DNA of 64,000 nt from Candidatus Spongiisociaceae bacterium (GCA_965219685.1 CBDCOH010000002.1:3424001-3488000); one strand, 5' to 3'; shown: positions 4,400-63,630, counted from the stretch's first letter. Notes: generated by a model not told the origin, from the sequence alone. Made by a program: numbers and translations.

Positions 4400-4420
4400 A
4401 CCATCCACCAATCACCAGCC
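4400..4420 (+). repeat. Degenerate C-rich heptamer array (ACCATCC ACCAATC ACCAGCC) abutting ATG 4421
   Basis: Read directly. Confidence 0.6.
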
Positions 4421-5557
4421 ATGAACATCCCTGAACATGTAGCCAAGGCCGTGCTGGCGGAGGCGGGCGTGCGCGTACCGGGCGGCGCATTCGCGACAAC
4501 GCCGGAGGGCGCCGCAAGGGCGGCTCGCCGCCTCGGGCCGGTGATGGTCAAGGCACAGGTGCCGATGGGAGGCCGCGGGAAGTCCGGCGGCATCAGGTCA
4601 GCACAGACCCCTGAAGAGGCCTACTCGGTCACCGCCGAGTTGATCGGAAGCCGCCTCGGCGGGTACCACGTTGCCGAGGTCCTGGTCGAGGAATGGATCC
4701 GGGCTGGTCAGGAACTCTACGCAGCGGTCCTCAACGATCCCGCCGGACCCGCGCGGCGCGTCGTGCTCTCGGAGCGTGGCGGGGTGGACATCGAGGCAAC
4801 ATCCCGTTCCGATCCCGGGTCGATCCTGACCCTGGACCTCGATCCGAGGATGGATCTGCACCCGGAGACCGCCCAGCGGTTCGCGACCGATGCAGGGTTC
4901 GCCTCGGCTGCGCCCGCCGTGGCCGATGCCCTAGTGCGGCTCTACCGGCTGCACCGTGACTCGGACGCCACGCTCCTGGAGGTCAACCCGCTGGCCGTCA
5001 CGGATGCAGGCGACGTGGTGGCGCTCGACTGCAAGCTCGTCTTGGATGGCGCGGCCGCCGCCCGCCAGCCATCGCTCGCCGCAGTTGCCGCCCCGGAGCC
5101 GCTGACCGGACTGGAGAAGGCCGCCCGGGAACTCGGGCTCCAGTTCGTCGAACTCGACGGCGACATCGGCGTGCTCGCCAACGGCGCCGGCCTCACGATG
5201 ACCACGATGGACGTGATCACTCACCTGGGGGGCCGGCCCGCCAACTTCCTCGAGATAGGCGGCGACGCGTACACCAAGGCCCGCCCGGCGCTCGAACTGG
5301 TACTCGCTCACGACTCGGTGCGCAGCCTGGTGGTCAACTTCTGCGGCGCCTTCGCCCGCACGGACGTGATGATCGACGGCTTGACCCGCGCATGGCTCGA
5401 CCTTCGCCCGCAGGTCCCCGCCTTCTTCACCGTCGACGGCACCGGTTCGTCGGAGGCCAGGCGCCTGTTGAAGGAGCGGTTGGGCCTCGATCCGTACCCG
5501 ACGATGGATGAAGCGATCGCGGCGGCCATCCGAGCAGCCGGAGGTCGGAGCGCATGA
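4421..5557 (+). CDS. ADP-forming acyl-CoA ligase beta subunit (SucC-like, ATP-grasp)
   Basis: MNIPEHVAK, VKAQVPMGGRGKSGGI, LEVNPL, NGAGLTMTTMD, PANFLEIGG; NFCGAFARTD replaces canonical NIFGGIVRCD. Confidence 0.85.
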   Translation: MNIPEHVAKAVLAEAGVRVPGGAFATTPEGAARAARRLGPVMVKAQVPMGGRGKSGGIRSAQTPEEAYSVTAELIGSRLGGYHVAEVLVEEWIRAGQELYAAVLNDPAGPARRVVLSERGGVDIEATSRSDPGSILTLDLDPRMDLHPETAQRFATDAGFASAAPAVADALVRLYRLHRDSDATLLEVNPLAVTDAGDVVALDCKLVLDGAAAARQPSLAAVAAPEPLTGLEKAARELGLQFVELDGDIGVLANGAGLTMTTMDVITHLGGRPANFLEIGGDAYTKARPALELVLAHDSVRSLVVNFCGAFARTDVMIDGLTRAWLDLRPQVPAFFTVDGTGSSEARRLLKERLGLDPYPTMDEAIAAAIRAAGGRSA

Positions 5558-6423
5558 TCGTCCGCGGCCACGAGCGCGTGCTGGTCCAGGGCATCACCGG
5601 ACGCCAGGCGACCTACTGGACCGCCCGGATGCAGGAGTACGGAACCCGGATCGTGGCGGGCGTAAGCCCCCGCAAGCCGGGGATCACCCACTGCGGGGTC
5701 CCGGTCCATGAAACCGCTCGGGCGGCAATGGAGGCCACCGGGTTCGAGGTGGCGGTCCTGTTCGTGCCTCCGCTCAGCGTGGAGGTTGCAGCCCTCGATG
5801 CCATCGAGGCGGGCGCTTCGAAGCTGGTCATCCTCACCGAACACGTCCCCGTGCGGGACGTGATGAACCTGATCTCGGCCGCCCGCGCAGCCGGGACGGA
5901 AGTGGTCGGCCCCAACACGGCCGGGCTCGTCACGCCCCGGGAGTGCTTCGTCGGATTCATGCCGGCCTTCGATGCCTCGATCTTCCGGCCGGGCCGGATC
6001 GGGGTGGTGTCGCGCAGCGGCAGCCTCGGCACCCTGGCCTGCCTCAACATCGTCCGGGCCGGTTACGGCCAGTCGGCGTTCATCGGTATAGGGGGTGACC
6101 CTGTGCCGGGTACCCGCACCCGCGACGCTCTTCAGGTCCTGGAGCAGGATCGGCGCACCGAAGCCGTGGTGCTGATCGGCGAGATCGGCGGTGACATGGA
6201 AGAGGACGCCGCCTCGTGTGTGAGGGAGATGAGCAAGCCGGTCGTGACGTTCGTGGCCGGACGGTCCGCTCCACCCGACCGGAGGATGGGTCACGCCGGC
6301 GCGATCTTCCAGGGAAGCCGGGGTTCGTACGCCTCCAAGAGGGCAGCCCTGGAGGCATCCGGCGCCGGCGTTCTGGAGACCCCTTCGGAGATCGGGCCGG
6401 CCCTGGCCCGAGTTCTCGGCTAA
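5554..6423 (+). CDS. ADP-forming acyl-CoA ligase alpha subunit (SucD-like)
   Basis: VLVQGITG, GPNTAG, VSRSGSL, IGEIGG, phospho-His motif RMGHAGA; ATGA overlap with beta subunit. Confidence 0.85.
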   Translation: MIVRGHERVLVQGITGRQATYWTARMQEYGTRIVAGVSPRKPGITHCGVPVHETARAAMEATGFEVAVLFVPPLSVEVAALDAIEAGASKLVILTEHVPVRDVMNLISAARAAGTEVVGPNTAGLVTPRECFVGFMPAFDASIFRPGRIGVVSRSGSLGTLACLNIVRAGYGQSAFIGIGGDPVPGTRTRDALQVLEQDRRTEAVVLIGEIGGDMEEDAASCVREMSKPVVTFVAGRSAPPDRRMGHAGAIFQGSRGSYASKRAALEASGAGVLETPSEIGPALARVLG

Positions 6424-6432
6424 CGGGCGCTG

Positions 6433-7785
6433 CTATCCGGCGTTCAACTCGATCAGCCGCTCCAGCACGTCGGGAACGCCTCCCGGAGTCACCACGATGA
6501 GTCGAAGGCCCCGGGCTTCCAGGAAGGCGCTGGCGGCGAAGGCCCGGTAGCCGCTCCCGCAGGCCACCCAGACGTCTTCCGACCGATCCAACCCTGCGGG
6601 AAGGCCGTCCTTGAGCCCGGGCACGTACCGGTAGACGGATCCCTCGATGTGGCCCTCCTCCCACTCCCCCGGAGACCGGACGTCCAGCACCTGGACCTCC
6701 TCCCCTGCTGCCAGGGCTGCGGCCAGATCGTCGGTGGTCCTGGTCTCGAAGGACGCCAGAGCGCCCCCGGCGTCGACCCAACCGGAGACCCCGTACACGA
6801 CGCCCAGCACGTTGTCGAAGCCGATCCGCCCGAACTGCCGGGCCACCTCCGCCACGTCCTGTCCTGGCTCGGCCACGAGGACCACCGGACTGTCGAAGGG
6901 CAGGAGCCACCCGGCCCACACCGCCACCTGGTCGCTCATCTCCAGCCCGAGAGAACCCGGTATGTGTCCAGCGGCATAGACAGGGCAGGGCCGTATGTCG
7001 ACGAGCCTCGCCCCCTCCGGCAGGTCCGACGGGTCCAGGACCTCGAGTTCCGGATACGCCAGGGGCTCCGGTCCCATGAGGTTGATGGGTCCCATGTGGG
7101 CGTAGTAGGCCGGGAAGGGTTGCAGGCCGGCCAGTTGCCCCACTACGAACGCGTCTGCGTCCGGGTATGCCAGCGCCGGGTTGGTCCGCCGCTCCAAGCC
7201 AATCGTCGACGTCGACCTCCCTGCTCCCGAGGCGGTACAGAAGGAGCCCTCACCGTGGGTGGGAAAAAGGCCGGTTCCGTCGGGAAGCCCGGCCAGCCGG
7301 TGGACCGACAGGTACTGGAGCCGGGCCAGCTGGCAGGCCCGGTCGTCTCCGAGGAGGTCGGACCGTCCGGCGGAGCCCACCAGCAGGCTTCCTCCGGAGA
7401 ACACCGCCACGATCTCCCCTTCCAGGAGGATCACGTAGCTCATGTGCTCGGGCGTGTGGCCGGGCGTGTGCACCGGCCGGATCGCGACCGGGCCACCGGG
7501 GAGGTCCTCGTTGTGGAAGGCGGGATGGTGATCGAAGGCCACGCCCGCCGCGGCAGGAAGCACGAGACGGGCGCCGGTGCGCCGGGCAAGATCACGTCCG
7601 CCCGACACGTAGTCGTTGTGGATATGGGTCTCGAGGACATGGGTGAGTCCTATGCCCGCGTCGACGACGGCTCGCTCGAACCGCTCCACGTCCCGCTGCG
7701 GATCGACGACCACCCCGCCCCCGTCGTGGGTCAGCAGGTAGGTGCTGTCTCCCAACCCGTCGGTCCGAAACGTCGTGATCTGCAT
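6433..7785 (-). CDS. MBL-fold hydrolase / persulfide dioxygenase fused to two rhodanese domains
   Basis: ETHIHNDYVSG, TPGHTPEH, PTHGEGSFC; C-terminal rhodanese DVRSPGEWEEGHI...VACGSGYRA. Confidence 0.85.
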   Translation of the reverse strand: MQITTFRTDGLGDSTYLLTHDGGGVVVDPQRDVERFERAVVDAGIGLTHVLETHIHNDYVSGGRDLARRTGARLVLPAAAGVAFDHHPAFHNEDLPGGPVAIRPVHTPGHTPEHMSYVILLEGEIVAVFSGGSLLVGSAGRSDLLGDDRACQLARLQYLSVHRLAGLPDGTGLFPTHGEGSFCTASGAGRSTSTIGLERRTNPALAYPDADAFVVGQLAGLQPFPAYYAHMGPINLMGPEPLAYPELEVLDPSDLPEGARLVDIRPCPVYAAGHIPGSLGLEMSDQVAVWAGWLLPFDSPVVLVAEPGQDVAEVARQFGRIGFDNVLGVVYGVSGWVDAGGALASFETRTTDDLAAALAAGEEVQVLDVRSPGEWEEGHIEGSVYRYVPGLKDGLPAGLDRSEDVWVACGSGYRAFAASAFLEARGLRLIVVTPGGVPDVLERLIELNAG

Positions 7786-63225: not shown

Positions 63226-63349
63226 TCGGTCGCACCGGTTGATCAGTGGGGCTGCAAGGAGAGGATGTTGCTCGCTGGCCAAGCGCAAAGTACGACCCCT
63301 CGCTTGAGCCTGTCAGTGGCCAGTGACCTGAATCCCTCCGCGACCCGAG

Positions 63350-63520
63350 TCACCTCAGCACCGCGATGATGATCGCCGCTGCGCTTGCCACTAGCCCGGT
63401 CATCCATCCGACGATCCACCGGGTCTGCTCGGCGAAGCGCTTCTCGATATCGGCGCGGAGGCCGGAGATGGCGGCGTCGAGCCGGTCCTGGCTCACGTAC
63501 CGATCAGTAGCGGTGGACAC
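63350..63520 (-). CDS. Small coiled-coil + C-terminal TM protein, copy B, 56 aa
   Basis: MSTATDRYVSQDRLDAAISGLRADIEKRFAEQTRWIVGWMTGLVASAAAIIIAVLR*; purine-rich RBS GAGGGAGGGAGAG before GTG. Confidence 0.75.
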   Translation of the reverse strand: MSTATDRYVSQDRLDAAISGLRADIEKRFAEQTRWIVGWMTGLVASAAAIIIAVLR

Positions 63521-63583
63521 AGACTCTCCCTCCCTCTCTTCCCCACCCTACCTAGCTACCAGCAGTAGTCAAAAGGAGTTATC

Positions 63584-63630
63584 ATTCACCATTCACCATT
63601 CACCATTCACCATTCACCATTCACCACTCA
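63584..63630 (-). repeat. (GGTGAAT)6 array starting at the acyl-CoA dehydrogenase stop; opposing (TCGGTAG)2 at 63212-63225
   Basis: 6 exact ATTCACC units on + strand. Confidence 0.95.

Follow-up and report, generated by a model that had tools for sequence, protein, structure and literature searches.

Polarised heptanucleotide arrays at the gene boundaries of a sponge-associated actinobacterium

Introduction

Tandem heptamers have been reported in bacteria since 1990, and we know of no accepted function or origin for them. Those of cyanobacteria, the short tandemly repeated repetitive (STRR) sequences, were reportedly described by Mazel et al. in 1990 as families of tandem heptanucleotides that lie in spacers and are specific to lineages. 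Other short extragenic repeats, namely repetitive extragenic palindromic (REP) elements, bacterial interspersed mosaic elements (BIMEs), REPINs and bacterial miniature inverted-repeat transposable elements (MITEs), are concentrated at the 3' ends of genes and between convergent genes and can form hairpins. Here we analyze the period-7 arrays of Candidatus Spongiisociaceae bacterium (GCA_965219685.1), starting from a stretch of 64,000 nucleotides on contig C2 (C2:3424001-3488000) that we call the window. An initial annotation of this window had described heptamer arrays that are G-rich in mRNA sense at stop codons and C-rich ahead of start codons, often enclose cargo, and might serve as an insertion or insulation mechanism.

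The closest described repeats are the heptamers studied by Rehm et al. (2015; PMC4692102), with the sequence GGGAATC in Xanthomonas (two genomes) and GGGGA(C/T)T in Nostoc PCC 7120. They lie nearer to their 5' neighbouring open reading frame (ORF), whatever its orientation. They are placed on the coding strand when they overlap a stop or lie within 50 bp of one, on the non-coding strand when they lie at most 50 bp upstream of ORFs, and only scarcely between divergent ORFs. Their positions are common to Xcc and Xac with variable length and sequence, four units are preferred, G-quadruplex formation is treated as a central feature, and no function was found. Two further systems bear comparison. 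TAACTGA direct repeats, known from marine Beggiatoaceae and from some Cyanobacteria and Bacteroidetes, lie a few nucleotides ahead of the start codons of unrelated genes (MacGregor 2015, PMC4679880), and Haemophilus carries phase-variable heptamer simple-sequence repeats (SSRs) upstream of genes, where copy number alters expression (PMC12721329). Our literature search, with subscription journals outside its coverage, returned nothing that describes heptamer arrays in Acidimicrobiia or in other Actinomycetota.

Results

The host is a sponge-associated actinobacterium (Acidimicrobiia) with a genome of 4.42 Mb in two contigs and 65% G+C. We denote this genome G000 and its congeners G001-G007, of which G007 is the closest; G000-G007 are the eight genomes of the genus. 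Tandem repeats were collected with Tandem Repeats Finder (TRF) and period-7 rows were merged into arrays at a threshold of at least 2.8 copies. Genes came from a purpose-built codon log-odds caller (3843 genes, 86% coding), whose stops are fixed by the reading frame and reliable. Genome-wide, period 7 makes up 360 of the 564 TRF rows with at least four copies, the runner-up being period 6 with 52 rows. The merged arrays number 473, of which 263 are intergenic, 185 lie across a gene edge and 25 lie within genes. The initial annotation had stated that arrays occur almost only at gene boundaries, and this holds at both scales: 448 of 473 arrays have some non-genic part, and 11 of the 12 period-7 rows in the window lie at or between gene ends, the remaining one (48755-48777) being in a called gene. 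Four units is the commonest copy number (118 arrays, compared with 102 of three and 57 of five), a weak peak near the TRF detection threshold.

To orient the arrays, we called each one G-rich or C-rich if its plus-strand GC skew lay beyond +/-0.2; oriented counts refer to 405 arrays, with 43 neutral arrays (|GC skew| <= 0.2) and the 25 in-gene arrays excluded. As a null, each array was re-placed at random inside its own spacer and on a random strand in 1000 rounds. The 5' end of the G/T-rich strand faced the nearer gene in 352 of the 405 arrays, where the null gave 202 +/- 10. The median distance to the gene was 1 nt for this end, which was flush in 227 cases (79 +/- 7 expected), and 90 nt for the 3' end. 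We then considered stop-flush arrays, defined as those with an edge between -200 and +3 nt of a stop. Among these 242 arrays, 221 were G-rich in mRNA sense, 8 were C-rich and 13 neutral, against a random expectation of 59 +/- 6 for either sense. The polarity that had been proposed for the window is therefore strict genome-wide. The mirror image was seen ahead of genes, where 40 of the 50 arrays located 0-30 nt upstream of called starts were C-rich, 2 were G-rich and 8 neutral. Array density per kb of spacer was 1.83 between convergent genes, 0.68 between tandem genes and 0.29 between divergent genes.

The polarity tracks the gene and not the replichore, as stop-flush arrays divided into 123 G-rich and 4 C-rich at leading-strand genes and 98 G-rich and 4 C-rich at lagging-strand genes. 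An orientation set by replichore alone is also ruled out, because the G strand divides almost evenly between the leading (199 arrays) and lagging (204 arrays) strands.

The 221 stop-flush arrays of G sense begin at or very close to the stop codon: 121 have their onset at most 25 nt before it, 54 inside it and 46 from 0 to 3 nt after it. In the 121 cases with an onset before the stop codon, the array itself encodes the final few residues of the protein. TAG is overused as a stop at array sites (134 of 242, compared with 1103 of 3843 genome-wide). As G-rich units carry TGA or TAG, any reading frame that entered an array would stop, and we therefore compared the C-termini of orthologues. In the congeners that lack arrays at these sites (G001, G002 and G004-G006), the protein ends coincide exactly or differ by 1-2 residues, with unrelated unique sequence beyond; the exception is a 6-residue tail in G002. 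Across 321 orthologue pairs between G000 and G007 (mean amino-acid identity 91.7%), unaligned C-terminal tails at array sites mostly measure 0-8 residues, and the longest occur at one site with 13 and 10 residues. An artefact of ORF calling is thus ruled out, because orthologues without arrays share the C-terminus, and so is ORF extension by stop loss into an array, because the tails differ mostly by 0-8 residues. Given that C-termini agree with and without arrays, the arrays start at the ancestral stop. Unit purity is abrupt at both ends of the arrays and offers no gradient to read. Together, these results show that the arrays are anchored via the 5' end of their G/T strand to the nearest constrained element, which is either a native stop or a promoter or start.

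We next turn to the relatives, where the same sites carry other units. G007 is 84-93% identical to G000 at the nucleotide level across the syntenic stretch, and at the same junctions it has period-7 arrays of differing units; at stop 57046, for example, it carries GGTAGGT/TAGTCGT where G000 has GGTGAGT. Three consecutive GGTGART units were matched 911 times in G000, 6 times in G007 and not at all in 39 other relatives, a count that does not speak against arrays of other units in those genomes. In a 415-kb sample of G007 there were 66 period-7 rows, while the next period, 9, had 7. The commonest units in this sample were ACCACTG (9) and AAGCCAC (6), and GGTGART accounted for 3 of the 66 rows, compared with 189 of 650 period-7 rows in G000. 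The sample followed the same polarity, with 18 G-rich and 3 C-rich arrays at stops and 11 C-rich and 0 G-rich arrays within 30 nt of starts; the anchoring rule was kept by 37 arrays and broken by 12, and adjacent pairs were G..C in 7 cases and C..G in none. At the orthologous stops of the 321 pairs, under a strict threshold, arrays were present in both genomes at 7, in G000 only at 19, in G007 only at 9 and in neither at 286, and many of the apparently empty partners are short degenerate heptamer tracts. The units differed at all 7 stops with arrays in both. At syntenic loci, we found no period-7 array in G001 or G003-G006 and one in G002; for G002 and G004-G006, samples of 100 kb say little about array absence, as a G000 stretch of that size held only 1. 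Array sites are thus conserved between species even as the units themselves are replaced, and one unit family took over in G000 alone. A scan of JGI metagenomes for closer strains gave a single distant match of 35% identity.

Unit order within arrays is also shared among loci. In mixed arrays, defined as those with two or more units of both GGTGAGT and GGTGAAT, the GGTGAGT block is gene-proximal in 51 of 57 cases (p = 6e-10), which comprise 34 of the 36 at stops and 17 of the 21 at starts. The result speaks against independent slippage at each locus, which would give about half. The order was seen in all 16 mixed arrays with an attached repeat that we call core A and in 35 of the 41 that lack it.

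This core belongs to a set of dispersed sequences that emerged when we clustered the 80 nt past the G-strand 3' end of the 405 arrays. The flanks fell into families; one cluster of 76 consists of inverted partner arrays, and 57 of the 405 arrays are joined to dispersed cores (core A in 29, core B in 16 and core C in 12). The cores are matched to unit families, with GGTGAAT beside core A and TAGTYGG beside cores B and C, and their orientation relative to the array is constant. Core A, of about 72 nt, lies between a GGTGAAT-type array and, usually, a second array made up of NGGCAAC units; no copy of it was detected in the 415 kb sampled from G007. Cores B and C are about 225-240 nt long. Core C gave 82 BLAST hits in G000 spacers, in either orientation and at 73-96% identity. 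In a comparison across 26 genomes, core C had 31 hits in G000, 7 in G007, a single marginal hit in each of G001 and G002 and none in the remaining 22. An alignment of 20 copies of core C shows defined ends, 5' TAGTTGG TGATCGG... and 3' ...ACTCGTCTAG, with a weak mutual match of about 5-7 nt that was judged by eye only, and no target site duplication (TSD) was identified at them. We rejected core C as a structured RNA, as RNAalifold on the 20 copies gave -7.9 kcal/mol with a covariation term of -0.11 and compensatory change in 4 of 23 predicted pairs; Rfam returned 0 matches on 7 array or core stretches. The dominance of one unit family in one genome, the order shared by 51 of 57 mixed arrays and the 57 core-joined arrays together indicate that plain local slippage is insufficient, and some copying between loci is likely.

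The two strands of the arrays carry different triplets. Of 270 stop-facing units, 236 include a stop triplet, as do 91 of 135 start-facing units (Fisher p = 4e-6); letter-shuffled units contain one in 56% and 46% of cases, respectively. The stop content is therefore partly a property of the unit family and partly tied to position. Start triplets occur in 87-92% of units on the G strand and in 0.7% on the C strand, which is nearly G-free. GGG is present in just 13 of 405 units and GG only in 328, which excludes three-tetrad quadruplexes. Since the weak copy-number mode at four occurs here without such quadruplexes, the four-unit preference of the Xanthomonas and Nostoc repeats may not be due to quadruplexes.

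On the start side, 21 of the 98 start-facing arrays have a TANNNT hexamer whose first base falls between -2 and +3 nt of the array end, compared with 33 of 405 opposite ends. Ten of these 21 hexamers lie 12-15 nt ahead of the called start, which corresponds to a leaderless gene layout. From motif spacing only, we infer that arrays with an abutting TANNNT lie upstream of the transcription start and not in the 5' untranslated region. Many genes adjoining C-rich arrays have TANNNT 12-13 nt before the ATG and no Shine-Dalgarno sequence (for example at 17793-18053 and 54014-54050), a layout which suggests that leaderless transcripts are frequent in this organism.

We also examined arrays that occur in pairs. 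Of 353 spacers with arrays, 265 contain a single array and 83 contain two. Adjacent pairs are arranged G..C on the plus strand in 66 cases and C..G in none, in all spacer classes and with a median gap of 28.5 nt; the arrangement is exclusive because each array faces its own flanking gene. We folded every pair region except one longer than 400 nt; across these 65, the median z was -3.9 against mononucleotide shuffles, and 71% had z < -2. However, the arms had 2.09 mismatches per unit, compared with 2.12 +/- 0.11 for partners permuted across loci. The arms are thus no more complementary than permuted partners, so the hairpin potential derives from the shared unit family and not from co-selection of arms, and selection of arms for complementarity is not supported. 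Inverted pairing is a by-product of polarity, and the earlier view of the pairs as designed stems does not stand. The cargo that had been proposed to lie between them fared no better. Filled and empty sites gave no clean case, as entire spacers differ between G000 and G007, and the candidate intact small genes at 51377-51541 and 63350-63520 had no Pfam match and weak coding scores.

In the window itself (Table 1), each of the 11 stops named in the initial annotation has a G/T-rich period-7 tract that runs from within the stop or right after it, those at 31276 and 46439 being short or degenerate. At the three named starts (4421, 51094 and 54050), a C-rich array ends 0-2 nt ahead of the ATG, and two further arrays, at 17793 and about 27915, precede genes in C sense, in agreement with the initial annotation.

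Table 1. Period-7 arrays and associated dispersed elements in the window (positions counted from the first nucleotide of the window)
Feature	Position	Strand	Context
C-rich array (CCACCAT CCACCAA TCACCAG CC)	4398..4420	+	Ends at ATG of succinyl-CoA-ligase-like gene (4421; Pfam)
ACCAGCC x3	17793..17813	+	Divergent spacer; C-sense toward gene at 18053
TGGTGGC x2.9	23625..23644	+	Onset 1 nt past stop at 23623
GGTGAGT/GGTGAAT array	23793..23810	-	Directly follows TAG of permease gene ending at 23810
CTAGTCG-type array	27915..27956	+	Leads into start of core-B-like element; C-sense, upstream of minus-strand gene starting at 27738
Core C, partial copy	28068..28184	-	Member of the dispersed family of about 225-240 nt with 82 BLAST hits genome-wide
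TAGTCGG-type array	28185..28232	-	Onset at TGA of ABC-ATPase gene (stop 28230); runs into core C
Weak tract of about 1.5 units (TGAATGGTGG)	31274..31290	+	At stop 31276
Core A copy (AACTCTTGAGGGTATCCG...)	31385..31452	-	After array 31455-31486; by sequence comparison
GGTGAGT x4.6	31455..31486	-	Onset 2 nt past TAG of gene ending at 31489
Degenerate TAGTCGG/TAGTTGG/TGATCGG tract	46395..46441	-	After TGA of thioredoxin gene (stop 46439; Pfam)
Period-14 array of two 7-mers, CCTGACA/CCCGGCA (gene sense)	51096..51129	-	Ends 1 nt before ATG at 51094
GGTGAAT x4	51356..51383	-	Overlaps stop (51377) of doubtful 54-aa ORF
GTGGTGA x2.1	53975..53989	+	Holds TGA of deacetylase-like gene (53981); G007 orthologue has the same stop position
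CCACCAA x4.9	54014..54047	+	Ends 2 nt before ATG of CCA-adding-enzyme-like gene (54050); G007 has (GGCAACT)n there
(GGTGAGT)13(GGTGAAT)4	57042..57164	+	First unit gives TGA of MFS gene (57046)
Core A copy (57165-57236) and second short dispersed module	57165..57257	+	Motif GAAGTGGTGGACCCCCATTAGGT found in G007 too
Second short array (GGGCAAC CGGCAAC C)	57258..57272	+	3' side of core A
TCGGTAG x2.7	63212..63230	+	Holds TAG of luciferase-like gene (63225); G007 has TTTGGTG units there
GGTGAGT then (GGTGAAT)6	63583..63630	-	Onset at TGA of gene ending at 63628; G007 has (TGGCTGG)n, both flanks orthologous

The window covers the replication origin region and otherwise holds ordinary housekeeping and transport genes, as assigned by Pfam. 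In the origin region (window 32455-43669), dnaA (39978-41336), dnaN, recF, gyrB and gyrA lie on the minus strand, and rnpA, yidD and yidC lie on the plus strand on the opposite side of the origin; the spacer 41337-42237 is the likely oriC. Cumulative GC skew has its minimum at about 3.45 Mb of C2. Repeats of 75, 21 and 12 bp at 27363-27647, in the 5' part of a solute-binding-protein gene (25789-27738, minus strand), presumably encode a low-complexity N-terminal linker. Outside the window, contig C1 (30 kb) carries a 32-bp repeat of 3.8 copies adjoining CCCCAAC heptamers at 4245-4374; with 59% GC, lower than the chromosome, this contig may be a plasmid or phage.

Array-rich spacers also coincide with breaks in short-read assemblies. 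In G007 (contigs C13 and C42), a contig stops at the spacer that corresponds to 53981-54050, and in four public DNA runs of one sample, contigs end within array 51356-51383 (at 51354-51379) with summed k-mer depth raised about 100-fold. The contigs of these four runs contained no usable copy-number variants, and among public runs no RNA run holding the sequence was listed.

Discussion

Our favoured explanation, to which we assign a probability of roughly one half, is that the arrays are hypervariable heptanucleotide simple-sequence repeats of the STRR or Rehm type that are homogenised between loci and filtered for orientation, with no dedicated insertion machine. Many loci in one genome share one unit family and one internal order. 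In the mechanism that we propose, slippage would lengthen and shorten arrays, while ectopic conversion, or co-copying with the small dispersed cores, would homogenise them among loci, such that an older array would be overwritten in place with its orientation retained. Selection would then filter orientation through the effect of each strand on translation and initiation. The G/T strand, with its stop and start triplets, would be tolerated, or even useful, only right after an ORF, where it could terminate translation in all frames at any copy number and may replace the last 0-8 codons. The C/A strand, which has no start triplet and rarely a stop, would be the sole orientation tolerated ahead of promoters and starts. 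The G..C pairs, their hairpin potential and the bracketed "cargo" could all follow from this geometry. The insertion or insulation mechanism of the initial annotation thus survives in part: slippage alone is insufficient and inter-locus copying is likely, which comes near to its idea of recombination handles, whereas stems and the gain or loss of cargo are unsupported.

Several considerations weigh against this explanation. An orientation filter alone leaves unexplained that more than half of the arrays start within 3 nt of a boundary, for which birth at the boundary or erosion of the spacer would be needed. Conversion between loci is read from patterns, and the nearest comparison stands at about 90% identity. 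Start-facing arrays too exceed shuffled units in stop triplets (91 of 135 against 46%), the caller is crude and its starts are approximate, and the G007 contigs were picked via earlier matches, so that array density in that sample is possibly inflated. Moreover, by our reading the Xanthomonas and Nostoc motifs lack stop triplets, and they show the same polarity (PMC4692102), so a filter based on stops in all frames is not the universal cause.

In view of the exact onset at the boundary and the gene-side GAGT block, we also consider a more polar form of copying. Here, new units or whole arrays, sometimes with cores, would be laid down gene-proximally by directional copying anchored at gene ends and would overwrite older ones. 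We consider this less likely than not. If it were true, a unit family would have swept hundreds of gene boundaries of one species within about 10% sequence divergence, the process would amount to a transposase-free molecular drive at stops and promoters, and the GAGT-to-GAAT order would serve as a time stamp. The dispersed cores could instead point to mobile composite elements, in which a non-autonomous unit of array, core and second array inserts at or near gene ends and lone arrays are remnants after core loss. Three core families with constant orientation and their own unit families (A in 29, B in 16, C in 12), the 82 spacer hits of core C at 73-96% identity, found mainly in G000 and G007, and the 5' end of core C, which is itself TAGTTGG TGATCGG, are what such elements would predict. 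Nevertheless, a recognisable core accompanies just 57 of 405 arrays, core A was absent from the array-dense G007 sample, and the junctions of G000 and G007 gave neither a target duplication nor a clean empty site. Candidate transposases, such as those that REPIN-RAYT systems or IS200/IS605-derived elements (PATE, omega-RNA) would call for, were not found either: Y1 transposase (PF01797) matched in 0 of the 8 genus genomes, with the control matched in 6 of 14 reference genomes, and the TnpB-type PF07282 was not found in G000 or G007 and is present in 4 array-poor congeners. A transposon as such does not explain flush placement at stop codons. We consider this origin unlikely.

Two other explanations would place the cause in the transcript or in transcription. 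HutP-type antiterminator sites are NAG-N4 repeats, and HutP (PF09021) had 0 matches in G000, with a positive control in B. subtilis. More generally, the arrays could have a dedicated function at the RNA level or as protein-binding sites, whether as terminator or stabiliser hairpins, as C-rich transcripts that load Rho and insulate genes, or as sites for a single-strand-binding protein with a 7-nt footprint. The good folding of pair regions, a C strand almost free of G in a genome that has Rho, and positions that are kept between G000 and G007 while the sequence changes are consistent with such a function, and binding of S1, Csp or CsrA was proposed for the TAACTGA repeats (MacGregor 2015, PMC4679880). 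However, the 265 spacers with a single array are unable to form such a hairpin, arms match no better than permuted partners, and the very diverse units argue against one specific binder. Anti-Shine-Dalgarno pairing is rejected, as pairing with the 16S 3' tail does not improve on that of shuffled units (-6.31 and -6.25 kcal/mol). The Rho domain was unmatched in a cyanobacterial control genome, yet Nostoc has the same polarity (PMC4692102). Overall, a dedicated function of this kind seems improbable to us. We are similarly doubtful that the polarity is mutational and not selected, with expansion taking place where DNA is transcribed, untranslated and G-rich on the non-template strand, that is, after ribosome release at stops or under divergent promoter transcription (e.g. 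R-loops). Such an asymmetry would fit the sharp onset at stop codons regardless of replichore, the enrichment in convergent spacers (1.83 arrays per kb) and the same geometry at promoters, where TANNNT abuts start-facing ends and often lies 12-13 nt before the ATG. However, it does not explain the takeover by one family or the GAGT-to-GAAT order; arrays upstream of -10 boxes lie outside the sense transcript, so that divergent transcription would be needed. Loss of NucS mismatch repair is ruled out as a cause, since NucS is present in all 8 genus genomes.

Slippage with homogenisation and an orientation filter thus remains our favoured reading, at about even odds. Whatever the mechanism, G000 offers one of the cleanest cases of heptamer polarity, with a median of 1 nt to the gene and a ratio of 221:8 at stops, and it constrains any model: the rule applies in the absence of G-quadruplex potential and regardless of replichore, and sites are kept while one unit family replaces others genome-wide with a common internal order. 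What is new in G000 is the polarity without G-tracts, the takeover by a single family, the gene-proximal order of GGTGAGT and the 57 core-fused arrays. With G007, it forms a natural comparative pair for studying the birth and overwriting of arrays. Arrays provide the stop codons and last few residues of about 6% of genes, and since they also break short-read assemblies, they affect the annotation and binning of uncultured symbionts.

Among known systems, the cyanobacterial STRRs resemble the G000 arrays in being lineage-specific families of tandem heptanucleotides in spacers, and differ in phylum and units. REP, BIME, REPIN and MITE elements share the concentration at 3' ends and in convergent spacers and the hairpin potential, and G000 has dispersed cores of its own; however, its arrays are tandem and not palindromic, a RAYT/Y1 transposase was not found in the genus, and neither terminal inverted repeats nor a TSD was defined. 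The TAACTGA repeats (PMC4679880) are likewise heptamer direct repeats by start codons, for which a post-transcriptional role was proposed, but they consist of a single unit and are mostly start-proximal, whereas the G000 arrays are mostly stop-flush with diverse units. The heptamer SSRs of Haemophilus (PMC12721329) also lie in 5' regions, but they concern a few contingency loci for surface proteins, in contrast to about 6% of genes in G000, mostly at 3' ends and with housekeeping genes included.

The nearest likeness is to the repeats of Rehm et al. (PMC4692102). Both comprise hundreds of heptamer arrays, nearly all non-coding, with the same polarity at gene ends, a position nearer to the 5' neighbouring ORF in either orientation, rarity in divergent spacers, sites kept between relatives while length and sequence vary, inverted pairs and ordinary housekeeping neighbours; the modal copy number is about four, as a weak peak in G000. 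The initial annotation had cited cyanobacterial STRRs alone; the polarity rule had already been published. G000 differs in that its units are almost without G3 tracts (13 of 405), which makes the quadruplex reading inapplicable, in its many coexisting unit families, most of which bear TGA or TAG, in a far more extreme placement at a median of 1 nt from the gene, in arrays fused to dispersed cores, and in a high-GC actinobacterial host. The G000 arrays follow the published placement rule, but the lack of the quadruplex feature and the addition of unit takeover, ordered blocks and attached cores set them apart from that exact family. They are among the sharpest examples of a known but unexplained placement rule.

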